Positions 32,781 to 47,808 of a stretch of DNA of 64,000 nucleotides are shown piece after piece (within the stretch, counting starts at the first letter, position 1; each line of letters starts with the position of its first letter). Under the pieces are notes generated by a model. It made no database searches. It saw only the letters and a list, made by a program, of their open reading frames with translations, and was not told the DNA's origin. The stretch spans positions 1,952,001-2,016,000 of the forward strand of contig CBDCTH010000012.1 in NCBI GenBank assembly GCA_965222155.1, in the 5' to 3' direction. The DNA is from Gammaproteobacteria bacterium (GTDB lineage: Bacteria; Pseudomonadota; Gammaproteobacteria; Eutrophobiales; Eutrophobiaceae). Position numbers and translations under genes: made by a program.

Positions 32781-32794
32781 GACGGCTGTAGAAT

Positions 32795-32916
32795 GGGGTC
32801 AGGTCGCACAATGCACACTTGAGGCTCATTCTTTCAACGTTCGGCCCACTGCAGTTCTGCTGATTCCAAAATACACTGTCACTTCACCTATAGTGTGCAT
32901 TGTGCGACCTGACCCC
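32795..32916. mobile_element. Family C mini-element (RAYT 3'-end derivative)
   Basis: GGGGTCAGGTCGCACAATGCACA / TGTGCATTGTGCGACCTGACCCC ends; interior homologous to 33264-33366. Confidence 0.9.
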
Positions 32917-33263
32917 ATTCTATGCATTCTATGCAGGCTTTTTGAGGGGGAAATCTTTGTAATACGTCGCAATGGAATCCTTATTCATTTTGTTATTGTA
33001 CTGAACCTCGCGACACCCAGAAAAAACGACCGTAGCCTCACCAGCGCCAGTGTGTCGAGTTTGCAGTATAAGTCTTTAGGGTCGGGCCAGTAGAACACGT
33101 ACCAATATAAGACTTGACCTGTTGTTTGTAAGTGAATTGTCGGGAACCGTTAGCAAAAATATCTGACTCGGGTCAAATTTCCCTGTACTCGATTGTCTGA
33201 TTTGGTATCAAGTATCGTTTCTGCGGCTGTGTGATCAACCCCCTTCTCTTCGACATCTAAAAT

Positions 33264-34285
33264 GGGGTCAGGTCGCGCAATGCACACCTGAGATATCTTC
33301 TTTCAACGCTCGGCCCACTGTAGTTCTGCTGACTCCGAAATACTCCGCCACTTCAACCATAGTGTAATGCCCTGACCGATAGGCAGCAGCCATAGCACTT
33401 TGACGCGTCGTGAATGCTGATTCGTAGTAGTCAAGCGGTTTGGGTGGGGCCAGCGTTTGCAGCTTCGGTATATCCTTAGAAACCTTATCCGGTTCTATAT
33501 GATTCAACATTTCCTGCACAAAGGAATCCGAACCCAGGTAAATTTGATTTTTGAGATTCTCCCAGGGTGACGGTTGGTTTTGATCGGTGTTAACAAACTC
33601 CTGGTACTTCGATCTTGCACTGTCACACCTTTCCGAAAATTCGGCTAATACCCTGTCAATTGTTAAACAAGGTTCGGGGCGTGCCAGCCCTGCCGTGGCC
33701 CGGTAACTGCTCCAGGGCCATTCTTGAGCCTGTCTCACCATCCGGGCTCGAACCGGGTTTAAAACTATGTACCGTACCAGCTCTAAAAAATAGACGTCAC
33801 TCTCAACCAGAATTCCTTTGAACCGGCCCTGGAACAAGTGCCCTACTCTGGTATGACGTTTATTATAACGTTGCGTATAAACACCGTTGAGGAAGCGCAT
33901 TCCTTTTGACAAACCGGGCTGACCGATTTCTATGAGCAAGTGATAGTGGTTGGACATCAAGCAATACGCATGACACAACCAACCAAACCGCTTGCCTGCT
34001 TCACCTAGCAGCTTAAGAAATTGATAACGGTCAAAATCATCTGAAAATATATCAGCACGTGCGTTACCGCGGGAGGTGATGTGGTAGAGTGCCCCTGCAA
34101 ATTCTATTCGGAGAGGTCTTGCCATAAGTTCATCCTTGAAAGCTACTTTAGATAAAATCTCTGTTACGGAATGCTGACTTATTCCGAGGTTAGCTGAAAT
34201 CCTACCATTAGTCTACCTGCTTTTCAAATAAATCAGGCTAATCTGGAACCTGTTACGAGCGATGTGCATTGTGCGACCTGACCCC
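33264..34285. mobile_element. RAYT unit bounded by 23-bp inverted family C ends
   Basis: GGGGTCAGGTCGCGCAATGCACA at 33264 and TGTGCATTGTGCGACCTGACCCC ending 34285 (1 mismatch). Confidence 0.85.
33268..34125 (-). CDS. REP-associated tyrosine transposase (HUH Y1) with C-terminal HTH
   Basis: MARPLR..YHITSRGN, HUH motif NHYH, GHLFQGRF, YIVLNPVRA, WPWSSY; stop codon lies inside the terminal repeat. Confidence 0.93.
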   Translation of the reverse strand: MARPLRIEFAGALYHITSRGNARADIFSDDFDRYQFLKLLGEAGKRFGWLCHAYCLMSNHYHLLIEIGQPGLSKGMRFLNGVYTQRYNKRHTRVGHLFQGRFKGILVESDVYFLELVRYIVLNPVRARMVRQAQEWPWSSYRATAGLARPEPCLTIDRVLAEFSERCDSARSKYQEFVNTDQNQPSPWENLKNQIYLGSDSFVQEMLNHIEPDKVSKDIPKLQTLAPPKPLDYYESAFTTRQSAMAAAYRSGHYTMVEVAEYFGVSRTTVGRALKEDISGVHCAT

Positions 34286-34467
34286 ATCACACACAAACAG
34301 ACCGTGATCGTGAACGCAAAGAAAAACTCCGGCGGCGACCAGCCAAGGTCGGCCGTAACAGGACCAACGAAGAATCCTTGTGAGTAATTGGTTATTGTGA
34401 GCAAGCCGCACATCATGCCTACCGTTGCGGCCAGCAACGGTCCCCAGCCTTTCTTGAATTCGTTCAT
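34286..34467 (-). pseudogene. Truncated MFS transporter (first ~60 codons only)
   Basis: MNEFKKGWGPLLAATVGMMCG..SQGFFVGPVTADLGWS is an MFS-like N-terminus that stops at the family C end at 34285. Confidence 0.75.
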
Positions 34468-34557
34468 GCTATTTCCCCACGATACTGCAAAGTTTCAATA
34501 AAACTCCGCCAGTGGTGCTGGTTCTTTAGAATGGGGTCATTTAGAATGCAGTAGAAT

Positions 34558-34676
34558 GGGGTCAGGTCGCACAATGCACACTTGAGGCTCATTCTTTCGA
34601 TGTTCGGCCCAATGTAGTTCTGCTGGTTCCAAAATACACTGTCACTTCGGCTATGTGCATTGTGCGACCTGACCCC
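34558..34676. mobile_element. Family C mini-element
   Basis: Same ends and RAYT-derived interior; stuttered junctions on both sides. Confidence 0.9.
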
Positions 34677-35215
34677 GTTGACCTGACCCCGTTGACCTCG
34701 CATTGTTCAGCGACGCAATACGTATGCTATAGCGTGCCCATGAGCCCCAGAATCCCAAGCCGTTGATGCCGGTATTTCAATGCAAGCGAACCGATAAGTG
34801 GCGCAGTAAAAAGCCCCAAACAGCCTTTCTTGAATTCGCATGCTATTTCCCCAATATCGTGCGACGTTTCAGGAAACGACTGCGTCGGTGTGAGTTCTTG
34901 GTTAATTCGAATGGCAGCGGCACGTCATGCCTAAATGAGTGCAATCCAGCAACGGTCCCCAGCCTTTCTTGACCGTAACGTGCTGGCTGTAGTTGATGAA
35001 GATCGCTGAATCCTTGTGAGTAATTGGTTATTGTGAGCAAGCCGCACATCATGCCTACCGTTGCGGCCAGCAACCGACGTTTCAGGAAACGACTGCGTCG
35101 GTGATGCCGGTTCTTGGTTTAATTCGAATGGCAGCGGCACGTGACAGGTAAATGAGTGTCAATCCGGACAAGGTAGCCCAGGGGTCAGACCGTAACGTGC
35201 TGGCTGTAGTTGATG

Positions 35216-35240
35216 AAGGCTGCCGCTTATGCGGCGGCTT
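35216..35240 (-). terminator. Putative terminator hairpin downstream of the TonB-dependent receptor
   Basis: Minus strand AAGCCGCCGCATAAGCGGCAGCCTT; U-tract is weak. Confidence 0.45.
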
Positions 35241-35260
35241 CACCCTGACTTCAAATGATT

Positions 35261-37927
35261 TTAGTTATATCGGTAATTAAAGGATAAACCGATTGTCCGT
35301 GGACGCAAAGAGAAAAAGTATTGATGCACACCTCCGGCGGCGGCTGCGGTATTTCCGGCAGATATATTTTGTTCATTCCCTATATTGCGCACAAACAGTG
35401 ATGCAGTCCAGTTCTCATTGGATTCCAATGCTATTGACGCATTAAACACTGCATAGGAATCAATTTCGAAGAAATCTCGTCCAAAATTTATATTTTGACT
35501 GAATGTCGATTGTGTGTCGCTGGCGTATTTTCCGTCCACATGGTAGGCAAGCGACCAGTTATTCATTTTAAGTGGTTGCAGATAATCAAGAGCGAATGTA
35601 AATGTATGGTCAGGCACACTCGGCAATGGATCACCATCTGAAACTGTAATAAGGGGGAGTACTGTGAAAGGTGGTATAAAAAAGGACCCCGTCGTTCCGG
35701 CGACATAGTCTGATATGACGAAATCCTTTGTGACCTCCGCATCGACGTATGAATATCCAATATTATATGTCAGGCCTTCACCCATGTTTCCATTCAGTTC
35801 CAGCTCAATACCTTTTGTTTCGGCTTCTTCTCCATTTAGCACAACCTTAAATCCCGCTATTACCAAAGATTCAAACTGAAATTGATCCCATTCAACAAGA
35901 TAGGCCGCTATTGAATAGTTTATATTCTCCGAGAGAGATCCTTTCAAACCTATTTCCCAATTGGTAGTCGAATCCGGTTGAAACTGGAGCAATGATGGCA
36001 AAGAGGCCTGGCGACCACCTTGTGGAAGCGCATTGGCACCGCCATGGCGGAACCCTTCGGCCCAGGTAAAATAAGCCATCATATCGTCGTTGATATTATA
36101 TGACGTGTTGACCTTGAAAATCTGATCTTCAAATTCCCGCTTTGCATCAGTAACGGTCGTACCACCTTCGAAAAACCGAGGCTGCTCGGCGCTTGAACAA
36201 AAAAGACCGCAAAAGGGTATTAATGTTTCAAAGTCGTGGGAAAATTCCTGCCAAAATGCTCGTATACCACCGGTAATCTGCCATTGGTCGCTTACGTGCC
36301 AGGTTAACTCGCCAAAGACAGCAATATCTTCAAATTTAAAAAGTCTGTCTTCTGTAAAGGTGACATCCGGTAAATTAGCGTTGTTTCTGCCGCGGGGAAA
36401 TCCAATGTTTGCTACATTGATGGTCGTATCAAATTCACTTAAACCCGGTTGCGTGGTAGTAGTCAGGCCGACCGATTCCCTGTCTTCATAATAAGCACCG
36501 ATAACGTAGTCAATCTTGTTATCTCCATTTGACGTGAGTCGAATTTCCTGTGTAAACCGCTCGGTTTCGTCAAAGGAAGATGTGACACCGGCAGCTCGTG
36601 GATAAAATGAATTAAATGTTGCCACACTTGAACCCCCCGGTGCCCTGGTAGGTAAATCAAAGCCGGTAAAATCAGGGGTATTAAAATAGCTGACTTCCGA
36701 ATAGGAAGTCGAAGATGAAATTGAAGCAATACCAACATCGATATTCACTTCAGCACTGAAAATGTCAGCCTTGCTTGCGCCGGCTGATTTGAGGAACATG
36801 GTGTGATCATAGTCACTGGCATCAGGAATCGTTACGCCACTGTTCGCGTAAAGCGTATTCCCACCTGCTCCAAGACAAGGCTGATTTGGGGTAAAAAAAT
36901 CTGCAGAGAATGCGACGCCTCCATTACAGGCATTTGCGTTGGAAAAGAATGAACCAGGAAAATTAGCGAGACTGGCGTCAACCAGACCCCCGTCAAAGCC
37001 GGGGTTAACCCCGGAAAAATCATCTACTTCACTCTTCTGGTTGAGGTAAGTCAACTGGACATCGACCGTATCTGTCGGCGCCCAATGCAGGTTGGCGCGA
37101 ATCATATGTGATTGAAGATCATTGGTATCCTCTTCCGGAGCCAGTACATATCCGCTCGCAAGGTCACCAGCTACACTTGGAACAGGCTCACCGCTACTAT
37201 CACGTTGTACAAGACCGATTCCGTCCACAAAGCCACCTAAATCATCCCAGCTCCCGACAATCCTTAAGGCCAGGGTATCTTCCACCAGGGGAACATTGAC
37301 CGCGATGTCACCGCCATAACCAAGCTCATCAGATTCCCACATCGAATCAAGATGGGTATTGACGTCCAGCGAAAACCCTTCAAAGTCGGCTGCTTTCGGT
37401 ATGAAGCGGATTGTCCCACCTAGCGAACCGGAACCGTATAATGTTCCCTGTGGGCCACGCAAAACTTCCACCCGTTCAATATCCTTCATAACCAGAGGAA
37501 AAAATAATGGAGTTTCGCCGAAATACATTGAAACTGCACCAGAACTGACATCGGTACCAAAGATGAGCCTGGAATCATTGGCATTAATGCCACGGAGAAT
37601 AAAAGTATTTCGACTTGAACGTAATGATCCGCCTTGATCCTTAAAATTGAGCCCTGGTACGAGGCGAGCGACGTCACCTATATCGAACGCTCGTGCGGTT
37701 TTCATATACTCATCTGAATATGCTGAAATATTATAGGGAATATCCTGAATACTCTGCTCTCTACGCTGTGCAGTGACTGTTATTTCTTCAAGCGGTGCTT
37801 GCGCCAACGCCGGAGATGAAAAAACACTGACCGTACATGCAACCATTACAGCAGCAGCGAAAGACTTTATTGGCGCGTTCTGAGAGGAGTTTATATTCTT
37901 GGTCCCCCGTTTCAGTTTCTTTTTCAC
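35261..37927 (-). CDS. TonB-dependent receptor
   Basis: Signal peptide, TonB box LEEITVTAQRR, plug motif IERVEVLRGPQGTLYG, C-terminal PRTIGLSFNYRY. Confidence 0.95.
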   Translation of the reverse strand: MKKKLKRGTKNINSSQNAPIKSFAAAVMVACTVSVFSSPALAQAPLEEITVTAQRREQSIQDIPYNISAYSDEYMKTARAFDIGDVARLVPGLNFKDQGGSLRSSRNTFILRGINANDSRLIFGTDVSSGAVSMYFGETPLFFPLVMKDIERVEVLRGPQGTLYGSGSLGGTIRFIPKAADFEGFSLDVNTHLDSMWESDELGYGGDIAVNVPLVEDTLALRIVGSWDDLGGFVDGIGLVQRDSSGEPVPSVAGDLASGYVLAPEEDTNDLQSHMIRANLHWAPTDTVDVQLTYLNQKSEVDDFSGVNPGFDGGLVDASLANFPGSFFSNANACNGGVAFSADFFTPNQPCLGAGGNTLYANSGVTIPDASDYDHTMFLKSAGASKADIFSAEVNIDVGIASISSSTSYSEVSYFNTPDFTGFDLPTRAPGGSSVATFNSFYPRAAGVTSSFDETERFTQEIRLTSNGDNKIDYVIGAYYEDRESVGLTTTTQPGLSEFDTTINVANIGFPRGRNNANLPDVTFTEDRLFKFEDIAVFGELTWHVSDQWQITGGIRAFWQEFSHDFETLIPFCGLFCSSAEQPRFFEGGTTVTDAKREFEDQIFKVNTSYNINDDMMAYFTWAEGFRHGGANALPQGGRQASLPSLLQFQPDSTTNWEIGLKGSLSENINYSIAAYLVEWDQFQFESLVIAGFKVVLNGEEAETKGIELELNGNMGEGLTYNIGYSYVDAEVTKDFVISDYVAGTTGSFFIPPFTVLPLITVSDGDPLPSVPDHTFTFALDYLQPLKMNNWSLAYHVDGKYASDTQSTFSQNINFGRDFFEIDSYAVFNASIALESNENWTASLFVRNIGNEQNISAGNTAAAAGGVHQYFFSLRPRTIGLSFNYRYN

Positions 37928-37970
37928 GATATTTTCCCCAGTTCGAAATCAATAATTTTGACAGTATTAA

Positions 37971-38351
37971 CCCGGATTTCTCACCAGGCCGCTTGTTGCT
38001 ATCGGAGACATGTTTTCTGTCAATGAGTGATGGAAACCTTTTCACTATATCGACATTACAGACTGCGCTTGATACGCCATTGCTTGTCTTTTTTGCGCCA
38101 GTGGGCACGTGTTCATTGCGCCCATCCCCCTGCTCAACTCCATACAGAGCTTACCCCTGCGGTTGTAAGCAGGGGGGCAGGCTCTGGGCGCAACCCTGCG
38201 GGCGGCTGTCGCCGTGCAAATCGTCTGTCCTGACGATTTGTCCCTCAACCAGAGCATAAGGGGACGGATTTGAAATCCGTCCCCGGAGAGTTCAGGCGCC
38301 CGCTGGCGCAAAAAATCCAGTGCAATCATCGTATCACCTGAGAAATCCGGG
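37971..38351. mobile_element. MITE family B with TTAA duplication and several nested inserts
   Basis: TTAA-CCCGGATTTCTCA ... TGAGAAATCCGGG-TTAA; inserts at 38112-38240 and 38260-38284. Confidence 0.9.
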
Positions 38352-38391
38352 TTAAAAGCTATATTGGATATAGTTTATTTAAGTCTTGGAC

Positions 38392-38428
38392 ACCAATAGC
38401 TTTTGCTTTGATTGTCATGGGAAATAGT
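38392..38428 (-). promoter_or_regulatory. Shared upstream motif WTTTCSCAT-N19-ATTRGT facing the TonB-dependent receptor
   Basis: Minus strand ACTATTTCCCAT-N19-ATTGGT; same spacing at 41047 and 43987. Confidence 0.6.
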
Positions 38429-38484
38429 TGCGCAACTGACTTTAGATGTTAAGCTTTTGACTTTAAAAGGTAAAAACGGCTCAA

Positions 38485-39372
38485 ATGATGGACCCCGATT
38501 GGTTGCCATTTCACCCTGCGCCCAGTTCGCCTGAATTTGTGCTGCCTGATGGGGCGGTCGATGCACACTGTCACGTATTTGGCCCCGCAGCAGAGTTTCC
38601 TTTTGCGCCAGAGAGAAAATACACCCCCTGCGATGCGAGCAAAGGCAATTTATGGCAATTGCGTGATCATCTTGGTTTCTCACGCAATGTGATTGTGCAG
38701 GCCACTTGCCATGGCGCCGACAATCATGCACTGGCGGATGCCCTGCAATCCTCCCACGGCAAGGCTCGAGGTATCGCCACGCTGCGATCGACTGTAACCG
38801 GTGACGAATTGGCACAATTGCATGCAGCCGGCGTACGCGGTGTACGCTTCAATTTTGTACAGCGCCTGGTGGATAGTTTGCCCTTTGGCGAATTGGCCGG
38901 TATTGCAGAGCGAATCGTACCTTTGGGTTGGCACGTCGTCATCTATTTTGAGGCAGCAGACCTGGCAGAGTATTACGATTTCTTCACATCTTTGCCTACC
39001 ACGGTGGTGGTAGATCATATGGGTCGCCCCGATGTCAGCCAACCGGTCAACGGCACAGGGTTTAATCTCTTTATCAAACTGTTGACCGAGAATGAGAATT
39101 TCTGGTCGAAGGTCAGTTGTCCGGAGCGGATTTCAGAAGTTGGTCCGCCAGGATATGAAGATGTCATCCCCTTCGCCCAGCGTGTGATCGACGCTTTTCC
39201 AGACCGTGTGTTATGGGGAACCGACTGGCCTCACCCCAATATGAAGTCTCACATGCCGGACGATGGTAAATTGGTAGACTTGATACCTCATATTGCCCTC
39301 ACAGAAAAACTACAACAAAAACTGCTGGTAGATAACCCCATGCGCCTGTATTGGCCGGAAGAAATCAGCTGA
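38485..39372 (+). CDS. ligI: 2-pyrone-4,6-dicarboxylate hydrolase
   Basis: DAHCHVFGP, RKYTPCDA, VQATCHG, DHMGRPD, WGTDWPHPN. Confidence 0.93.
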   Translation: MMDPDWLPFHPAPSSPEFVLPDGAVDAHCHVFGPAAEFPFAPERKYTPCDASKGNLWQLRDHLGFSRNVIVQATCHGADNHALADALQSSHGKARGIATLRSTVTGDELAQLHAAGVRGVRFNFVQRLVDSLPFGELAGIAERIVPLGWHVVIYFEAADLAEYYDFFTSLPTTVVVDHMGRPDVSQPVNGTGFNLFIKLLTENENFWSKVSCPERISEVGPPGYEDVIPFAQRVIDAFPDRVLWGTDWPHPNMKSHMPDDGKLVDLIPHIALTEKLQQKLLVDNPMRLYWPEEIS

Positions 39373-39388
39373 TGATATTGCAAGTGAT

Positions 39389-39428
39389 GGGGTCAGGTCA
39401 CACATTGTGCAATGTGCGACCTGACCCC
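39389..39428. repeat. Family C minimal doublet (two ends, no interior)
   Basis: GGGGTCAGGTCACACATTGTGCAATGTGCGACCTGACCCC, flanked by GTGAT/ATCAC. Confidence 0.85.
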
Positions 39429-39440
39429 ATCACTCCAGGA

Positions 39441-39597
39441 CTCTGGTTGAGGGAGCACGTGCCCGCCAGCGCAAAAAAGACAAGTGAGAGCGCATTCAGC
39501 GCTGTTTGCACCGACGACGATAGTAATAAACTGCGAATAACTCATTGACATCACGGAACTTTCCATCTATGACAAGCGAACTGGCGCAATATCCGGG
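39441..39597. mobile_element. Truncated MITE family B (one end missing)
   Basis: CTCTGGTTGAGGGAGCACGTGCCC ... CTGGCGCAATATCCGGG-TTAA; other half absent next to the family C doublet. Confidence 0.8.
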
Positions 39598-39630
39598 TTA
39601 AGGCGCTTTTGGCAATGAACTTGTCGCCTG

Positions 39631-40899
39631 TTACGCTGTACTGTGCTTGTGAATCTCCTCTGAGACTTCCCTGAGGTACTCCAGGAACAATTCAGCCGCA
39701 GGCGAGGGTTGGGTATGGGCTCGTAGTGTCAGACCGATGGGTCGATAAGTGTCCTCCAGTACGACCGGCAAAACATCCAGTATGCCGAACTGCATGTCAT
39801 AATAAATCTGGTGTTCCGACAACAAGGCTACCCGGTCACTGTCCAACAGGAGGCCTCTCACCATGGATAGAGAACTGGTCTCCACTGCATGTTCCGGTAC
39901 GAGCATTTCATGACGCGACAGCGTCTCATCGAACAATTGCCGGCTGGGGCTTCCCCTTGCGGGTAACACCCATTGCGCGTCCTGCATGTCCTTAAAGTTG
40001 ATTCTTGACCTGCCGGCCAGCGGGTGGTCTTTGCGTGCAATCACCGACAGTCGATCTTCAAAAAGTTTTTCGGTAACAATATCAGCACGGTTTTCGACGT
40101 TGCGAATGGCACCCACTATGAAGTCGATATCACCACTTCGTAAGGACGACTCCAGCACATCGTAGGGACCCTCCCGGGTGACCACATCAATCTGGGGATA
40201 TTTTTCCAGCAACCTGTTGATGGCAACAGGTGTCAGATAGGTTCGAGTATAAGGCAGTGTTCCGATGACAACACGTCCCTGAGTCACTCCATCCAGGCTG
40301 GCGATATCGTCGATGGCTTGATGGATTTGTGAAAATGCCAGTTTGGTGTGTCGAGCGAGAATCGTGGCCAGTCCGGTCGGTGTTACCCCATTGGGTTCGC
40401 TCCGGAAAAGAGGTAATTCCAGCAACTCCTCCAGATATCGCATGGAGTTATATACTGCTGTTTTGCTTATCCCCAGGGTCTGCGCAGCGGCAGTGACGTT
40501 ACGCTTCTCATAAAGTGCTACAAAGGCTGCCAACCGCTTGTAACTGATATCCAATGAGAAAACCGGTATTGAGTGGTAGTGTCGTCCGCCGGGTTTGAAT
40601 TCCTGATATGATTTGCCGGCCTTGTCAAATTCATCTACCACCAGCCTTACCCTGCGAGCCAGGGCAACGCCATATACAGTGGGCATCATGCCCGTTGCGG
40701 CTCGGTCAAACAGCCGTGTACCCAGGGTTAATTCCAGTTCGCTGATTGCTTTAGTGATGGTGGTCTGGGAACGATTCAGCTTGTTGGCAGCGCGAGTCAC
40801 ATTTTTATATTCTGCTACGTACAGGGCAGATTTAAGATGGCGCAGACTGACTCCCGGAATGCGGAAATTATCGTTACTCACTCTGTTTCGACATGACAT
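39631..40899 (-). CDS. LysR-family regulator with two tandem HTH domains (GalR/LigR-like)
   Basis: Two HTH segments (NVTRAANKLNRSQTTITKAI; NVTAAAQTLGISKTAVYNSM) plus substrate-binding domain; divergent from ligU. Confidence 0.9.
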   Translation of the reverse strand: MSCRNRVSNDNFRIPGVSLRHLKSALYVAEYKNVTRAANKLNRSQTTITKAISELELTLGTRLFDRAATGMMPTVYGVALARRVRLVVDEFDKAGKSYQEFKPGGRHYHSIPVFSLDISYKRLAAFVALYEKRNVTAAAQTLGISKTAVYNSMRYLEELLELPLFRSEPNGVTPTGLATILARHTKLAFSQIHQAIDDIASLDGVTQGRVVIGTLPYTRTYLTPVAINRLLEKYPQIDVVTREGPYDVLESSLRSGDIDFIVGAIRNVENRADIVTEKLFEDRLSVIARKDHPLAGRSRINFKDMQDAQWVLPARGSPSRQLFDETLSRHEMLVPEHAVETSSLSMVRGLLLDSDRVALLSEHQIYYDMQFGILDVLPVVLEDTYRPIGLTLRAHTQPSPAAELFLEYLREVSEEIHKHSTA

Positions 40900-40960
40900 T
40901 TTTCAGTACGATAGCAGTTTTTTTACAATTATTCATGACAGGAAACAGGCATGTTGCTTT

Positions 40961-41011
40961 GGGGACGGACTTAAGCATGCCCCCGTATGTTGTCAGCGGG
41001 GGTCCGTCCCC
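40961..41011. repeat. GGGGACGGA..TCCGTCCCC palindrome with AAGCATG-CCCCCG..CGGGGG mini-insert
   Basis: Direct inspection; insert-free versions at 38260, 55813 and 62516. Confidence 0.8.
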
Positions 41012-41046
41012 GGATAGACCAGGGGCATGGTGAGCATGGCCGGATT

Positions 41047-41083
41047 ACTTTTTCGCATGGTTGGGAAATTAATTCCCATTGGT
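41047..41083 (+). promoter_or_regulatory. Shared upstream motif before ligU
   Basis: ACTTTTTCGCAT-N19-ATTGGT, with TACGCT 18 nt after TTGGTT. Confidence 0.62.
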
Positions 41084-41135
41084 TAGCTGACCGGATTATA
41101 AATACGCTGGTATCACATAAATTGGAAGCACGAAC

Positions 41136-42224
41136 GTGAAACAGTTAGCGATACCGTATATGCAGATGCGCGGGGGGAGTTCGAAAGGTTTGTATTTCCT
41201 TTCTGAAGATTTACCCACGGACCCGGCACAGCGTAACGAAGTACTGCTTGATGCTATGGGTCGAGGTGAGCGTCAGATAGACGGTCTGGGCGGCGCCGAT
41301 CCCCTGACCAGCAAGGTGGCGATTGTTAGCCGTTCTTCCCGGCCGGACGCAGATATCGACTTCTTATTCGTACAAATAGTGGTAGGTCAGGACAAAGTCG
41401 ATACTATACCAAACTGTGGAAACATACTGGCGGGCGTTGGGCCCTTTGCCATAGAGACTGGCCTGGTGCCGGCAGATGAACAGACAACCCGACTTACTGT
41501 GCATATGGTCAACAGCGGAATATTGAGCGAGTTGGAACTGTCTACTCCCGGCGGCAAAACGGAGTACGAGGGCGAGGCTCAAATTGATGGCGTGCCAGGC
41601 AGTGCGGCGCCAGTGCTTTGCTCCTATAAGGATTTGTCCGGCTCAATCTGTGGTGAGCTCCTGCCCACCGGCCGGGTACTGGACGTTGTAGATGATGTGG
41701 AAATGACCTGCGTTGACAATGGCATGCCTGTAGTGGTTTTGCGGGCAAAAGATTTCGGCATCAGTGGCTATGAGTCACCGCTTGAACTGAACGCGAATGA
41801 GAATTTAAAGGCGAGACTGGAGTCGATTCGACTTCAAATTGGCCCCGATATGAACCTGGATGACGTGAAAAACAAGACCATTCCGAAGATGTGCCTTGTA
41901 TCGCCGGCTGTAAATGGAGGACTGGTCAACACACGAACGTTCATTCCTCATAAATGTCATGCGGCTGTCGGGGTGTTGGGGGCGGTGTCGGCAGCTAGCG
42001 CTTGCATATTACCTGGATCGGTCGTAGAGGGAATGGTCGAACGGCCGGGAGGCGAAGTCAAAACTATATCAGTGGAACACCCCATTGGAGAGTTTTCTGT
42101 AACTCTGCAAGTGGATGAATCCGGTGAATTTCCGCTAATCAAAAAAGCGGGTTTGCTGCGCACTGCGCGCCTGCTGAGCAGGGGTGTATTGTATGTTCCC
42201 GCCAGAGGGGAAAGTAAGTTATGA
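41136..42224 (+). CDS. ligU: 4-oxalomesaconate tautomerase/isomerase (LigU/GalD/FldA, PrpF family)
   Basis: [45 protein letters not shown]. Confidence 0.9.
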
Positions 42225-42919
42225 GGACGGTAGCAGTTCGAAACATTGAACGAGCAGATGCAGCGGTCGTGGAGGTACTGGGAACTTTGGGCGTTGCCAC
42301 GGTACATGAAGCGCTGGGACGGGTGGGGCTGTTAAAACCCTATATGCGACCGATATACCGACACGCCCGGATCGCAGGCAGTGCCATTACGATTTTGGCC
42401 CAGCCTGGTGATAACTGGATGTTACATGTGGCCATCGAACTTTGCCAACCCGGGGATGTCCTCGTGGTAGCTTGCACCACGGACAATACCGACGGAATGT
42501 TTGGTGATTTATTGGCCACTTCGGCCCGGGTTCGGGGTGTAAAAGGCCTTGTGGTAGATGCCGGCGTACGCGATGTGGCAATACTGGAAGATATGAGTTT
42601 CCCCGTTTGGTGCAAAGCGGTATCCGCTCAGGGTACGGTTAAAAACACGCCTGGTTCGGTAAACGTACCCATTGTCTGTGCCGGCCAGACAGTCAATCCC
42701 GGTGATGTAGTAGTTGCTGATGATGACGGTGTAGTAGTGATTCCGAGACACCGGGCCGAAGCTGCTATGGCTGCTGCCCGGACTCGGGAACAAAATGAGG
42801 CGAGCAAGCGTGAAAAACTGGCAAACGGCATTTTAGGTCTGGATATGTATGACATGCGCCCTCGCCTGGAAAAAGCGGGCCTGATTTACCTGGATTCACT
42901 GGAAGATTTAAAAGACTGA
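42221..42919 (+). CDS. ligK: 4-carboxy-4-hydroxy-2-oxoadipate aldolase
   Basis: [40 protein letters not shown]. Confidence 0.93.
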
Positions 42920-42921
42920 TC

Positions 42922-43968
42922 ATGATTATTGATTGCCACGGGCACTACACCACGGCACCGGGTGCGCTGGGCGAATACCGTGAGCGACAAAAAGCGGAAC
43001 TGACTGATGAACCAAACTTTCAACATGAAAAAGGTATCATTGATATCAGCGATGAGCAGTTGCGGGAGAGTCTTGAAGGAGCACAATTAAAACTGCAACG
43101 GGAACGCGGTACCGATCTCACTATATTTTCACCGCGCGCCAGCTGGATGGGGCATCATATCGGCAATGAGAGCACCAGTAAATTCTGGTCTGAGCACTGT
43201 AATGAGTTAATCTACCGCATCACACAGCTATATCCGGATAACTTCGCCGGAGGTTGCCAGTTGCCCCAGACACCGGGGGCAGAACTACGTAATGCCGTCC
43301 TGGAACTGGAGCGTTGTGTGCTTGAGTTCGGTTTTGTCGGGTTTAACCTGAATCCGGACCCATCGGGCGGCCACTGGGACTCCCCTCCCCTGGGAGATCG
43401 CTATTGGTATCCTGTCTACGAAAAAATGTGCGAACTGGATGTCCCCGCCATGATCCATGTGAGTGGGGCTTGTAATCATGCCTTTCAAACCACCGGTTCC
43501 TATTACCTGAGTGCCGACACTACTGCCTTCATGCAGTTGATGACATCGACTGTGTGCCAGGATTTTCCGGATATCAGGTTCATAATCCCCCATGGTGGCG
43601 GTGCAGTGCCTTATCACTGGGGGCGTTTCCGCGGTCTGGCTGACATGATGAAGCTGCCTCCCCTCGATGAATTGTTGTTGAACAATGTCTACTTTGACAC
43701 CTGTGTTTATCACCAGCCCGGGATTGATTTGTTAGTGGATGTGATCCCCTCCAAAAATATTTTGTTTGCATCAGAAATGATAGGTGCAGTACGCGGCATA
43801 GACCCCGAAACCGGCCATTATTTCGATGATACCAAACGTTACATCGATAACAACAATGCACTCAGCAAAGACGAAAAAAAGGCCATTTTTGAGGGCAATG
43901 CCCGTAGGGTATTTACCCGATTGAACAAATCAAATTCGAATACGGCACGCATCGTGAAGGCAGGATAA
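42922..43968 (+). CDS. ligJ: 4-oxalomesaconate hydratase
   Basis: MIIDCHGHYTTAP, FSPRAS, IPHGGGAVPYHWGR, FASEMIGAVRG. Confidence 0.95.
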   Translation: MIIDCHGHYTTAPGALGEYRERQKAELTDEPNFQHEKGIIDISDEQLRESLEGAQLKLQRERGTDLTIFSPRASWMGHHIGNESTSKFWSEHCNELIYRITQLYPDNFAGGCQLPQTPGAELRNAVLELERCVLEFGFVGFNLNPDPSGGHWDSPPLGDRYWYPVYEKMCELDVPAMIHVSGACNHAFQTTGSYYLSADTTAFMQLMTSTVCQDFPDIRFIIPHGGGAVPYHWGRFRGLADMMKLPPLDELLLNNVYFDTCVYHQPGIDLLVDVIPSKNILFASEMIGAVRGIDPETGHYFDDTKRYIDNNNALSKDEKKAIFEGNARRVFTRLNKSNSNTARIVKAG

Positions 43969-43986
43969 CTCACCAGGATTACAAAT

Positions 43987-44023
43987 GACTTTTCCCATAG
44001 CTTTAAAAATAAAATTCATTAGT
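43987..44023 (+). promoter_or_regulatory. Shared upstream motif before the pobA-like gene
   Basis: GACTTTTCCCAT-N19-ATTAGT, with TATGTT 18 nt after TTAGTA. Confidence 0.6.
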
Positions 44024-44054
44024 ATCAATATTAAGCTGCTTTTATGTTAGCTTA

Positions 44055-44260
44055 CAGGGCAAACGCATACTTTTGGATTCTGTTGCAGAAGACAGGAAAT
44101 CAACCGGAAAACGCCGCCCGTCATGCTGGCGAATGCCAGCATCCAGTCAAACAACAGCGCATGATCATGGTGATGAAGGGTTATTCACTGGATTCTGGCT
44201 TGCGCCAGAATGACGGAATCGGGTAAAAACGTCTGAATTCAAAAGTATGCGTTTGCCCTG
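44055..44260. mobile_element. MITE with 26-bp TIR and perfect 10-bp target duplication
   Basis: TGTTAGCTTA-CAGGGCAAACGCATACTTTTGGATTC ... GAATTCAAAAGTATGCGTTTGCCCTG-TGTTAGCTTA; contains a GTCAT-type palindrome pair at 44118-44216. Confidence 0.92.
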
Positions 44261-44298
44261 TGTTAGCTTAAGTCTACAACCCGCTTTTCAGGAAAATG

Positions 44299-44366
44299 CA
44301 GAGTAAAAATACGACCAATCTGGCAGACTGTGTTGCTGTACTGTCAGGTATTTTTACTCTGACCCC
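44299..44366. repeat. REP-like doublet CAGAGTAAAAATAC...GTATTTTTACTCTGACCCC
   Basis: 14-bp inverted repeat; right arm recurs at 62565-62583. Confidence 0.65.
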
Positions 44367-44402
44367 AAGTGTCGAGGGTTTGTCAATTCAGGAGACAACA
44401 CA

Positions 44403-45587
44403 ATGCATGTACCAGTCGTGATAGTTGGTGCGGGCCCGTCCGGTTCGCTCTTGGCCTGGATTTTACGCCAGCGCGGGATCGAAAGTATCGTCCTGGAAAG
44501 GAAAAGCCGTGAATACGTCGAAAGTCGCATTCGTGCCGGTGTCATGGAGCAAAACGCTGTAGACTTGATGATTAAAGCAGGTGTCGGCGAACGCCTGAAA
44601 AAGGAATGCATGTATCACCCAGGTGTGGTCATCGGCCTTCACAATGAGCATCATTTTCTCGATTTCGATAGGCTGATAGGGGTTGGTGTCACCATATACG
44701 GCCAGTCGGAGCTTACCAAGGATCTATTGGGCGCACTTGCAGCGGTAGATCACAAGGTTTTCTATGAGGCGCCCGCCACGGCAATCGAAGGCATTGAGGG
44801 TGATTCCCCGACGGTGAAGTACACTCACGAGGGCGTGGATAAGGAAATAAGCTGCGATTTCGTTGTCGGGGCCGATGGTTTTCATGGTCCCTCACGTTCG
44901 TCGATCCCGGCCGGCGTCCTCAAGACTTACGAAAACGTTTATCCCTACGGTTGGCTCGGTGTGATGGTCAAAGCGCCGCCGTCGAAAGATGTAGCAATGT
45001 TTTCGCATCATGAACGTGGCTTTGCACTGTTGAGCATGCGTTCACCGAAAATTTCGCGGCTCTATCTCCAGTGCGCGCCGGATGAAGATATCAACGAATG
45101 GCCCGATGAGCGGGTCTGGGAAGAACTCGATACGCGCCTGGGTGCACCCGGTTGGGAGCTTGAGCGAGGGGAGATCTTTCAGAAGGATGTGACCCCACTG
45201 CGGAGTTTTTTCTCCCAACCCATGTCCCATGGTCGTCTGTTTCTGTGCGGTGATGCCGCGCACATCGTCCCGCCGACCGGCGCCAAGGGCCTTAACGCGG
45301 CATTTGCCGATGTGAGCGTTCTGTCCGCCGGATTGATCGAATACTTTACAAAAGACAACGCTACGATTTTAGATCGTTATGCCCACGTTGCCCTGGCCCG
45401 CAACCTCCAGTGTCAGCGTTTTTCCTCGGGCAACACGGCCAAGTATCATATCCACCCCGACAGCAATTCCTTCGAACGCCGTATGCAAGTGGCGGAGTTG
45501 GAATATCTGGTGTCTGACGAGACGACCCAGATATCCTATGCCAGGCAACATACCGGGCTTCCGTTCGATTACTGGCCGGAACTCTGA
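44403..45587 (+). CDS. pobA: 4-hydroxybenzoate 3-hydroxylase-like flavin monooxygenase with divergent active site
   Basis: GAGPSG, RIRAGV, YGQSE, GADGFHG, GDAAHIVPPTGAKGLN; family is clear, substrate is not. Confidence 0.8.
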   Translation: MHVPVVIVGAGPSGSLLAWILRQRGIESIVLERKSREYVESRIRAGVMEQNAVDLMIKAGVGERLKKECMYHPGVVIGLHNEHHFLDFDRLIGVGVTIYGQSELTKDLLGALAAVDHKVFYEAPATAIEGIEGDSPTVKYTHEGVDKEISCDFVVGADGFHGPSRSSIPAGVLKTYENVYPYGWLGVMVKAPPSKDVAMFSHHERGFALLSMRSPKISRLYLQCAPDEDINEWPDERVWEELDTRLGAPGWELERGEIFQKDVTPLRSFFSQPMSHGRLFLCGDAAHIVPPTGAKGLNAAFADVSVLSAGLIEYFTKDNATILDRYAHVALARNLQCQRFSSGNTAKYHIHPDSNSFERRMQVAELEYLVSDETTQISYARQHTGLPFDYWPEL

Positions 45588-45612
45588 ATGCGAACCCCTT
45601 CCCGGACACTGA

Positions 45613-45848
45613 CCCGGATTTCTCACCAGGCCGCTTGTTGCTATTGAATACTTTGCTAACAATAAATTACGGTAATATGTCCATTATATCAACAGAACAG
45701 GCTGCGCTTGATGCGCCCTTGCTTGTCTTTTTTACGCCTACGGGCACATGCTCCCTCAACCAGAGCTATGGCTATGCTTTCGGTCGCAGGCACCCGTAGG
45801 CGTAAAAAATCCGGCGCAATCATCGCATCACCCGGTGAGAAATCCGGG
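45613..45848. mobile_element. MITE family B (no insert)
   Basis: CCCGGATTTCTCACC ... GGTGAGAAATCCGGG. Confidence 0.9.
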
Positions 45849-45933
45849 TTGATCACCTGTGCCGATATGCGAGTTTTGCACAGTCTGACGGGGTCCGCGT
45901 CCCTTCAACTTTTCAGGAATAAGGAAGAGAAAC

Positions 45934-46302
45934 ATGAGTAGAGAAACTGGTCACAGTGATAATATTCCAGGCACATGTGTGTTCACCGGGCAAAGGTCGC
46001 AGAAGGGGCTAAAGCTGAATAGCTTTGCCTATTCTCTTCACAAAGCCGGGAACCGGGAGGTCTATCGTCAGGATCCGGCGGGCTACATGGATAGCTACGG
46101 TCTTTCAGCCTGGGAGAAACAAAAGGTTAAAGAGAAGGACTGGAAGGCCCTGATCGAAGAAGGCGGCGGCAACATCTATATGCTGTTGAAAGTCGGCGCT
46201 ATTACCGGTGATGGTCTTGTCCCCATCGGTGCGCAGCAGCGAGGCGAATCGGTGGAAGATTTCATGAAGTCCCGCAACGTGCCATTGCGGCAAAATATGT
46301 AG
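45934..46302 (+). CDS. ligA: Protocatechuate/gallate 4,5-dioxygenase alpha subunit
   Basis: IPGTCVF..KGLKLN.F..L, GGNIYMLLK; directly before ligB. Confidence 0.85.
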   Translation: MSRETGHSDNIPGTCVFTGQRSQKGLKLNSFAYSLHKAGNREVYRQDPAGYMDSYGLSAWEKQKVKEKDWKALIEEGGGNIYMLLKVGAITGDGLVPIGAQQRGESVEDFMKSRNVPLRQNM

Positions 46303-46329
46303 CAGCAAAACAAATAGTGGAGCAATAAA

Positions 46330-47187
46330 ATGGGTAGACTAGTTGCCGGTATCGGTTCGTCTCACGTTCCTTCGATTGGCGTGGCTTTCGATCAAAACCA
46401 GCAGGAGGCTCCTGGGTGGAAGCCCCTGTTTGATGGTTATAGGCCTGCTAAAGCCTGGTTAAAGGATGTCGGTATAACTCACGCCGTCGTTCTGTACAAC
46501 GATCATGGCACCGATTTTTTTTTCGATAAGTATCCGACATTCGCGATGGGTGTTGCCGATGAATACCCTATCGGTGATGAAGGTTGGGGCGTACGTCCGC
46601 TGCCGGCGGTAAAGGGTGATAGTGTTTTTTCCTGGCACCTGGCTAACTCTCTGGTGAAAGAGAGTGAATTCGATCTTACCATTTGTCAGGACATGGTGAT
46701 GGACCACGGCATCCTGGTACCATTGCCGTTATTGTTTGATCATAAGCCTGACTGGAGTGTCAAGACTGTGCCTATGCAGGTCAATGTGCTGCAGCATCCG
46801 TTACCGACACCGCACCGGTTATGGAAACTTGGACAAGCACTGCGAACAGCCGTTGAGTCCTATCCCGATGATGTGCGTGTTGTTGTTGTTGGCACTGGTG
46901 GACTTTCTCACCAGTTGCATGGCGATCGTTTCGGTCATATGAACTCGGACTGGGACAAGGAATTTCTTGACCGGATCGAAGATGATCCGGAAAGCCTCGT
47001 CGATATCTCTCATGATGAATTGATGGAACGTGGTGGGGCGGAAGCGGTGGAGATGATGGTGTGGCTTGGGATGCGTGGCGCCTTAACCCCGAAGGTCAAC
47101 AAGATCCACCGGAATTACTACCTGCCGATGTTATCAGGGATGGGATTGACCGTTCTGGAGGATACGCTGACAGGCGATGCAACCTGA
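46330..47187 (+). CDS. ligB: Protocatechuate/gallate 4,5-dioxygenase beta subunit
   Basis: SHVPSIG, YNDHG, DEGWG, DHG, GTGGLSHQL, GAEAVE..W. Confidence 0.92.
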   Translation: MGRLVAGIGSSHVPSIGVAFDQNQQEAPGWKPLFDGYRPAKAWLKDVGITHAVVLYNDHGTDFFFDKYPTFAMGVADEYPIGDEGWGVRPLPAVKGDSVFSWHLANSLVKESEFDLTICQDMVMDHGILVPLPLLFDHKPDWSVKTVPMQVNVLQHPLPTPHRLWKLGQALRTAVESYPDDVRVVVVGTGGLSHQLHGDRFGHMNSDWDKEFLDRIEDDPESLVDISHDELMERGGAEAVEMMVWLGMRGALTPKVNKIHRNYYLPMLSGMGLTVLEDTLTGDAT

Positions 47188-47205
47188 ATCCGGAAATGCG
47201 GAAAT

Positions 47206-47305
47206 GGGGTCAGGTCGCACAATGCACACTTGAGGCTCACCCTTTCAACGTTCGGTCCACTGTACTGTCACTTCAGCTATAGTGTGCATTGTGCGACCTG
47301 ACCCC
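47206..47305. mobile_element. Family C mini-element (100 bp)
   Basis: Same ends; identical to 47709-47808. Confidence 0.9.
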
Positions 47306-47698
47306 GCATCCGTTACCGACACCGCACCGTTATGGAAACTTGGACAAGCATTGCGAACAGCCGTAGAGTCCTATCCCGAAGAGGTGCGTGTCGTTGTTGT
47401 GGGCACCGGCGGGCTTTCTCACCAGCTGCATGGCGATCGTTTCGGCCATATGAACGCGGACTGGGACAAGGAATTTCTTGACCGGATCGAAGATGATCCG
47501 GAAAGCCTTGTCGACATCTCTCATGATGAATTGATGGAACGTGGTGGTGCGGAAGCGGTGGAGATGATGGTGTGGCTTGGGATGCGTGGCGCCTTAACCC
47601 CGAAGGTCAACAAGATCCACCGGAATTACTACCTGCCGATGTTATCAGGGATGGGATTGACCGTTCTGGAAGATACGCTGACAGGCGATGCAACCTGA
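47306..47698 (+). pseudogene. Duplicated 3' half of ligB (divergent allele)
   Basis: Aligns to 46794-47187 with a 1-nt deletion and ~16 substitutions. Confidence 0.9.
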
Positions 47699-47708
47699 AT
47701 CCGGAAAT

Positions 47709-47808
47709 GGGGTCAGGTCGCACAATGCACACTTGAGGCTCACCCTTTCAACGTTCGGTCCACTGTACTGTCACTTCAGCTATAGTGTGCATTGTGCGAC
47801 CTGACCCC
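47709..47808. mobile_element. Family C mini-element (100 bp)
   Basis: Identical to 47206-47305. Confidence 0.9.

Follow-up and report, generated by a model that had tools for sequence, protein, structure and literature searches.

A RAYT-like transposase gene between long inverted repeats and its family of mini-elements: a probable TIRtron in a gammaproteobacterial genome

Introduction

RAYT-like genes that are flanked by long terminal inverted repeats, and not by REP sequences, have been described as TIRYTs, and the units which they form with these repeats as TIRtrons (Di Nocera, De Gregorio and Rocco, 2013, BMC Genomics 14:522; PMC3733652). According to the available text of that study, many TIRtron repeats share the motif GGGGWSAS, the flanking repeats may overlap the 3′-end of the gene, and some of the repeats make up moderately abundant families that occur as singles, dimers and clusters. 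Of 26 described TIRYTs, 20 were later assigned to TnpAREP subclass 2.1, all of them, as far as the accessible sections of the paper go, with a C-terminal domain of the Bac_DnaA_C, HTH_23 or HTH_28-like kind (Quentin et al., 2018, BMC Genomics 19:475; PMC6006769), and a full-text search for the terms TIRYT and TIRtron found only these two papers. Here we analyse a TIRYT gene, its inverted ends and the short elements that share these ends in a 64,000-nt stretch (hereafter the window) of contig C12 from the 4.55-Mb genome of a gammaproteobacterium (G000). We consider it highly likely that the locus is a TIRtron, that is, a TIRYT gene between long inverted repeats, accompanied by a family of non-autonomous mini-elements (minis); we are less sure of the mechanism proposed below than of this classification.

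The architecture is that of the TIRtron/TIRYT class, already described and little studied since 2013. Shared with that class are the inverted-repeat flanks, the GGGGWSAS motif, a 3′ repeat overlapping the gene, the occurrence as singles, dimers and clusters, a C-terminal helix-turn-helix (HTH) and a patchy distribution, and when the locus is set against the published text available for the class nothing defining differs. Details that go beyond that text are minis formed by deletion that retain the gene's 3′-end, a co-varying extension of 6–7 nt, insertion without target duplications and a lineage-specific insertion; the subterminal position of the conserved box and a heritable, co-varying outer stem may be new. 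A preliminary description of this DNA had regarded the locus as an unusual autonomous/non-autonomous pair run by an HUH enzyme. A Y1/HUH protein gene with terminal inverted repeats and deletion derivatives is indeed what we find, but such an arrangement is not new (TIRtrons date from 2013), and the term 'autonomous', as far as the sequence can tell, is unproven. Nor is a RAYT enclosed by its own repeats unusual in itself, because REPINs flanking single-copy RAYTs are the norm according to the available text of Bertels et al. (2017; PMC5581495).

Results and discussion

A 1022-bp unit with mutually inverted ends

The locus is a real, well-delimited feature (Table 1). The arms of the 1022-bp unit, GGGGTCAGGTCGCGCAATGCACA and the reverse complement of TGTGCATTGTGCGACCTGACCCC, agree over 23 nt with one mismatch, and the left arm contains the TGA stop of the gene (seen as TCA at 33268–33270) and encodes its last six codons (GVHCAT), so that the earlier account of a RAYT-type gene enclosed by 23-bp inverted ends, one of them with the stop codon, is borne out. 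Both ends have the tip GGGGTCAG, and the conserved box GGGGTCAGGTC matches the published GGGGWSAS. Within the 23-nt end there are direct repeats, GGTCAGGTC and TGCACAATGCACA (GGTC-A-GGTC and TGCACA-A-TGCACA), and there is no GTAG. When up to two mismatches are allowed, the window has 14 occurrences of the 13-mer GGGGTCAGGTCGC where 1.4 are expected, and none of 100 shuffles had as many; it lies at 32795/32904, 33264/34273, 34558/34664, 39389/39416, 47206/47293 and 47709/47796, and all of the tip pairs formerly listed for four minis and a 40-bp doublet were thus recovered.

The boundaries of the unit recur in other genomes. Across the genus sample, which comprises 23 genomes (G000 and the genomes of 22 other species), copies of the unit were found in four species (G000, G009, G016 and G014), and in the latter three the unit again measures exactly 1022 bp, at 94–96% identity, with homology ending within about 6 nt of the GGGG/CCCC tips. 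The ends of the unit pair only with each other and not with themselves: folded as single-stranded DNA (ssDNA), for which scores are given as z, the left 147 nt and the right 146 nt of the unit each lack a hairpin (z +0.7 and −0.6, respectively). A candidate subterminal hairpin, to which a degenerate inverted end within the gene (CCTGACC, near 33374) would contribute, was rejected, as its alignment score of 14 lies below the shuffled median of 15–16 and the left 147 nt are unfolded. A sigma-70-like site lies upstream of the gene (34227–34199, minus strand); the promoter scan of the unit gives no evidence here because it found two sites where 1.7 were expected.

A Y1/HUH protein with a C-terminal helix-turn-helix

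The only long open reading frame (ORF) inside the unit encodes the protein that we call TIRYT, of which Pfam Y1_Tnp covers residues 13–120 (E 1.9e-11), while the NCBIfam model REP_Tyr_transpos (NF047646) scores 71 bits against a cut-off of 80. In an alignment with 13 homologues from genomes of the same family (43–96% identity), the HUH histidines H60 and H62 never vary, Y119, within a helix of the form RY(I/V)xLNP, occurs in 13 of the 14 sequences, N123 and P124 are again invariant, and the WxWSSY motif (W138-S-S-Y141) is conserved. The AlphaFold2 model (mean pLDDT 77) has as its best Foldseek match the E. coli TnpAREP on its REP hairpin (4er8_A; E 2.9e-8, TM-score 0.75 on the target), followed by the transposases of IS608, IS200 and ISDra2. 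Predicted fold and motifs together show the enzyme to belong to the Y1/HUH family.

The C-terminal region is modelled as four helices (pLDDT 86–92), and the HTH at about residues 231–276 is conserved, to about residue 276, in homologues of 43–60% identity. The Pfam HTH matches to residues 231–276 all fall below their cut-offs (HTH_23 at E 0.009, HTH_28 at E 0.034). As judged from these features, the protein is a RAYT-like Y1 transposase with a C-terminal HTH of the kind described for TnpAREP subclass 2.1. A paralogue of 35% identity is encoded at C12:2623897.

Minis as internal-deletion derivatives of the unit

The minis of the family, 40–130 bp in length, consist of two ends placed head to head around a short interior, and as ssDNA they are predicted to fold into hairpins with stems of 23–31 bp and z between −6.6 and −9.4 (mini 1, −9.4; mini 2, −6.6; mini 3, −8.8; the doublet, −7.5). 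The interiors of the window minis match the 3′-end of the gene, at 84% over 108 nt in mini 1, 81% over 97 nt in mini 2 and 82.5% over 63 nt in minis 3 and 4, in agreement with the match to its last ~100 nt that had been noticed before. Minis 3 and 4 (47206 and 47709) are the two copies within a single tandem duplication (46794–47305 and 47306–47808, ~0.5 kb, 95% identical) and are not independent. Minis 3 and 4 are identical to each other, together with 7 nt on their left, and this identity within a 95% identical duplication suggests conversion or selection on the minis. Partial duplicated tips lie beside mini 2, at 34527–34539 and 34678–34690.

Table 1. Positions of the TIRtron, its parts and the related short elements in the window.
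Feature	Position	Strand	Remarks
TIRtron (gene and both inverted ends)	33264–34285	−	exactly 1022 bp
TIRYT gene	33268–34125	−	285 amino acids; N-terminal Y1/HUH and C-terminal helix-turn-helix predicted
Left inverted end	33264–33286	+	holds stop codon and last six codons of the gene
Right inverted end	34263–34285	−	137 nt upstream of the start codon
Mini 1	32789–32922		122-bp core (32795–32916) with 6-nt inverted extension TAGAAT/ATTCTA; carries the gene's 3′-end
Mini 2	34558–34676		119 bp; same subfamily as mini 1
Mini 3	47206–47305		100 bp; subfamily with the gene's 3′-end, further internal deletion
Mini 4	47709–47808		identical to mini 3; second copy in 0.5-kb tandem duplication
End-to-end doublet	39382–39435		40 bp (39389–39428) with extension AGTGAT/ATCACT

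In alignment with the unit, the gene-derived minis are its positions 1–108 joined to its last 23 nt, that is, to the right repeat, at a GT(G) microhomology, and the junction CATAGTGT/GCATTG is constant across all gene-derived copies, including shorter ones in G014 and G019. A second deletion family, in which positions 1–223 are joined to positions 976–1022 (271 bp), adjoins the unit in G014, occurs as a truncated copy in G016 and is found without its right part at an unrelated locus in G022. On this comparison the minis bearing the gene's 3′-end are internal-deletion derivatives of the unit, as the preliminary description had proposed; other minis of the family have unrelated interiors. The direction from gene to mini follows because the HTH encoded in those nucleotides is ancestral to the protein. 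We also considered that the right arm of the gene-derived minis might be an inverted copy of the left end; a simple internal deletion is preferred, as the gene's AGTGT at the junction is the source of the one diagnostic inner base.

Minis and unit appear to have exchanged sequence as well. The G014 unit (L014, 4445–5466) holds mini-type sequence in its first 45 nt, with the stop (TGA) eight codons early, and such a unit with a mini-type 3′-end indicates exchange between minis and unit; the G000 minis are closer to this G014 allele (87–90%) than to their own unit (82–86%). The doublet has orthologues of 49 bp in G019 and 53 bp in G014, both tip to tip, and of 112 bp in G016, the last with a duplicated half end, and because these orthologous versions are longer the doublet is read as the shrunken remnant of a longer mini. 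An unrelated repeat of ~165 bp (39435–39601) adjoins the doublet in the window; G000 has 11 further matches to it, copies also occur in G002, G019, G014 and G006, and the orthologous site in relatives lacks it.

Gene and ends go together across phyla

Exact copies of the 13-mer end number 34 in the G000 genome, 23 of these being outside the window. Contigs C1, C4 and C9 and five other places on C12 have paired minis, and the genome as a whole has about 12 of them in addition to solo and duplicated tips. The earlier statement that all copies fall in the accessory region can therefore not be upheld. Counted on both strands, the box GGGGTCAGGTC occurs 44 times in G000, 114 times in G014, 78 times in G009 and 55 times in G016, the four species with the unit, while six genomes have 1–6 hits, which is the level of the reversed-pattern control.

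The locus is not fixed and syntenic across the genus. Gene and unit are present in 4 of the 23 genomes, in the same P450/MFS neighbourhood in all four and with different immediate flanks in each comparison; pieces of the unit are found elsewhere in the genomes of G022, G016 and G007, and G020 has a decayed unit. Beyond these species, inverted repeats starting with (G)GGGTCAGGTC, and then diverging, flank 7 of 11 homologues of 43–60% identity (from other species of the same family, one of which, G002, belongs to the same genus); no such repeat was found around the remaining four, one of which lies at a contig end.

The same association holds at much greater distance. With each species represented by a single genome, a scan gave at least 562 stretches that code for TIRYT relatives. 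The best 80 of these, spread over Gamma-, Beta- and Deltaproteobacteria, Nitrospirota, Acidobacteriota and others, were examined for their flanks. Enough flank to judge the tips was available at 72 of the 80 loci: inverted tips stand at both ends in 42, at one end in 22 and at neither in 8. Typical units among the best 80 measure 0.9–1.0 kb, and distances taken to the outer tips place the upstream tip at a median of 53 nt before the start and the downstream tip at a median of 35 nt after the end of the alignment (near residue 275). These comparisons of sequence show that the association of gene and repeat is ancient and extends across phyla.

Gain and loss of minis among species

The mini at C12:3412000 is absent from G019, where the flanks are 96–97% identical, and from eight other genomes; it is specific to G000 and has no flanking homology to another copy. 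Presence and absence at orthologous sites, the opposite of a set of minis without polymorphism, is seen at further places. The doublet site is empty in G013, G007, G001, G006 and G022 and filled with the 49–112-bp versions in G019, G014 and G016; the mini that follows the P450 gene (mini 1) is present in G000, G019 and G014, present by half in G022 and missing from G013, G007, G001 and G006; and the site at C12:2024995 is filled or empty among relatives. Non-orthologous copies in other genomes are 92–98% identical, extension included. Minis have been gained and lost between species, and the full unit can presumably move as the minis do, if rarely.

Alternative explanations

The best surviving alternative, which we consider unlikely, is a canonical domesticated RAYT–REPIN system (Nunvar, 2010; Bertels and Rainey, 2011), in which REP doublets are spread by a fixed RAYT, present once in the genome, that has itself stopped moving. 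Several features of the locus resemble such a system: a single-copy Y1 gene has its own repeats and keeps the same neighbourhood in four species, the minis are hairpin doublets with co-varying arms as REPINs are, orthologous minis persist across species and outlive the gene in G018, G013 and G019, and RAYTs flanked by REPINs are the norm as published (Bertels et al., 2017, available text). Against it, neither end of the unit is a palindrome of its own, as the fold scores of the two regions show, and the GTAG tag is missing from the 23-nt end; the protein stays below the RAYT equivalog cut-off (71 against 80 bits) and has an extra C-terminal HTH of the TIR-associated class; copy number is low, at about a dozen minis; the unit has exact 1022-bp boundaries and differing immediate flanks, with internally deleted or fragmentary copies at other loci; and the gene is found in only 4 of the 23 genus genomes.

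A second alternative, which we regard as very improbable, is that the minis are miniature inverted-repeat transposable elements (MITEs) of a DDE transposon, for example Tn3-like with its GGGG tips or IS630-like, and that the Y1 gene is captured cargo. The tips seen here may resemble those of the Tn3 family. Minis of this family are short, non-coding and bounded by GGGG-tipped terminal inverted repeats, and they arose by internal deletion from a coding parent, all as in DDE-MITEs; in addition, an IS630-like DDE_3 transposase gene lies inside C4:417881–429550, a region bounded by the same tips. However, that gene is flanked by its own, different repeats, none of the 39 minis surveyed (see below) has a direct repeat other than palindromic AT or ATATAT, and the parent encodes a tyrosine (HUH) enzyme and not a DDE enzyme. 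Moreover, the same tip flanks TIRYT homologues in distant phyla (both ends at 42 of the 72 loci judged among the best 80 of at least 562), and the left end incorporates the gene's stop codon together with its last codons.

Finally, that the minis are immobile structural hairpins (terminators or mRNA-stabilizing elements) spread by recombination and segmental duplication is just as remote a reading as the preceding one. It is favoured by the position of many minis between convergent genes or directly behind stop codons, by the origin of two of the four window minis in a tandem duplication and by the frequent local duplication of tips. Against it, dispersed copies at unrelated loci have nothing in common but the element and its 6–7-nt extension, and the insertion specific to G000 has no flanking homology to another copy.

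An inherited outer extension and a possible mechanism

Having set these alternatives against the TIRtron interpretation, we return to the latter and to what the borders of the minis say about movement. The flanks of 39 distinct minis, from G000 and from loci fetched from other genomes, some of them orthologous to one another, were surveyed. No target duplication is apparent: the only direct repeats beside the 39 are AT (22 minis) and ATATAT (one mini), both of them palindromic as well, and comparisons with empty sites show none. Instead, an inverted extension of 5–9 nt continues beyond the GGGG in 27 of the 39 (6 nt in 13 of them, 7 nt in 11), with 0–4 nt in the other 12; after our own sorting into independent sites, about 18 of 30 have an extension of at least 5 nt. 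The sequence of the extension varies between copies (TAGAAT, AGTGAT, GAATAAT, GGTGAAT, GTAAAT and others). Because empty sites lack the extension and copies at unrelated loci share it, the extension belongs to the mobile unit and the box is subterminal. At two orthologous sites the two arms have changed together beside the box, from T..A to C..G, and the inner stem beyond the 23-nt core co-varies too. The notion that the inverted flanks are pre-existing palindromic target sites was rejected, as neither half of the extension is found at empty sites in relatives and one extension recurs at unrelated loci. A conserved target tetranucleotide was not seen.

Elements of the IS200/IS605 family (IS608, ISDra2) share with this one the Y1/HUH fold, the lack of target duplication, subterminal recognition and a cut presumed to lie a few nucleotides away. 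Their ends each have a hairpin of their own and are not mutual inverted repeats, whereas the ends described here pair only with each other. By analogy, TIRYT would bind the conserved subterminal box, probably helped by the HTH, which may add recognition of the direct repeats within the end. It would then cut ssDNA at the foot of the stem into which the two ends pair, a few nucleotides beyond the box and by way of a 5′-phosphotyrosine link, and the hairpin would move by cut-and-rejoin in the manner of IS200/IS605, IS608 TnpA and TnpAREP. Complementarity between the arms could be kept by selection or by repair within the hairpin.

A bolder proposal is a third mode of Y1 transposition for TIRYT elements. 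Here the enzyme would read the GGGGTCAGGTC box in a stem formed by the two ends of one strand and would cut at a fixed 6–7 nt outside it, the position being set by base-pairing and not by sequence; the outer stem would be free to vary and yet co-vary between arms, and it would be carried to every daughter copy; the symmetry of the arms would be renewed by hairpin-templated repair or by copying akin to terminal resolution. With all of these steps taken jointly, we think this proposal possible but doubtful.

Points that weigh against this account

A number of observations weigh against the reading of the locus as a TIRtron moved by its own enzyme. We infer from comparative analysis both the catalytic steps, cleavage and strand transfer included, and what the HTH does. 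To our knowledge no TIRYT biochemistry has been reported, and the available text of Di Nocera et al. (2013) and Quentin et al. (2018) contains none. A phmmer search of PDB sequences gave nothing at E ≤ 0.01, and the A1 profile reached 4er8 in the PDB only at E 0.088; these sequence searches were not significant and the NCBIfam RAYT model scores under its cut-off, and it is Pfam and the fold search that link the protein to TnpAREP. G000 has one copy of the gene, which is not what an active autonomous element would lead one to expect, and its wider neighbourhood is constant across the four species, so that vertical inheritance and local rearrangement could explain its distribution without movement of the whole unit.

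The minis add points of their own. Within the genus the number of ends per genome is not correlated with possession of the gene, and several relatives have many minis and no intact gene that we could find: the box is counted 121 times in G018, 87 times in G006, 85 times in G013 and 48 times in G019, genomes in which no full-length gene was detected at E ≤ 1e-20. Filled sites are untidy, with about 13–56 nt of target replaced and tips often locally duplicated. In another genus the extension is semi-conserved (GAATCT/AGATTC), and only 3 of 20 minis pair over at least 5 nt there.

Neighbouring genes and other GGGG-tipped families

In the window, the right end of the unit interrupts an MFS-type transporter gene (34213–35073) near codon 58, and fragments of its 5′-end recur at 34294–34479, 34701–34823 and 34843–35073 in an order and on strands that differ from those in relatives, where an intact MFS gene follows the P450 gene on the same strand. 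In the four public runs examined (all assembled contigs), joints between ends enclose other interiors, reflect other family minis or repeat assembly breaks, and speak neither for nor against excision; two joints (34816 back to 34294, and 34464 to 34839) are other orders of the neighbouring gene fragments in other samples.

Outside the window, at C12:2623862–2624578, the 35%-identical Y1 paralogue lies between inverted GGGGACACAATACTTAATT ends and forms a second TIRtron, with an extra right end at 2624709; this end occurs 46 times in the genome with up to two mismatches. At least five families in G000 have 16-mers that start with GGGGWSAS, namely GGGGACAGATTT... (211 copies of the top 16-mer and its variants), GGGGTCAGAGTAAAAA (95), GGGGTCAGGTCGCACA (33), GGGGACACAATACTTA (32) and GGGGTCAGACTCGATT (25), and only two intact Y1 genes were found in that genome. 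Intergenic spots are shared by different GGGG-tipped families. The C12:2024995 site is occupied in G019 and G016 by a GGGGTCAGAGTAAAAA-type element instead, which in G019 has an inverted flank of 8 nt, and at the G019 orthologue of the doublet site (L055) the mini is nested in another palindromic element with GAAGAATAGGGGACAGACC ends.

The region C4:417881–429550 was also considered as a large element of the TIRYT family and rejected: the region is a patchwork of other repeats together with a perfect inverted duplication of 431 bp, the IS630-like gene with its own ends and RTX-repeat genes. In the surrounding locus (L001, G000:C4:416500–431000), the 431-bp inverted duplication, which has a third copy of 342 bp, starts exactly 7 nt outside a GGGGTCAGGTCGC tip, and coiled-coil repeat ORFs are present as well.

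Conclusions

TIRYTs are a widespread branch of the RAYT/IS200 superfamily, with at least 562 related loci in one genome collection, and the TIRtron family explains a class of GGGG-tipped palindromic repeats for the purposes of genome annotation. The present locus offers substrates for study of this branch, as it combines an intact gene, two deletion families, a genome-specific insertion and empty sites in close relatives, and it raises the question of how a cut site outside the conserved box is chosen. If the third mode of transposition outlined above were true, the unit with the gene, as the autonomous partner, and the derivatives deleted from it, as non-autonomous ones, would form a genuine pair that depends on an HUH enzyme.

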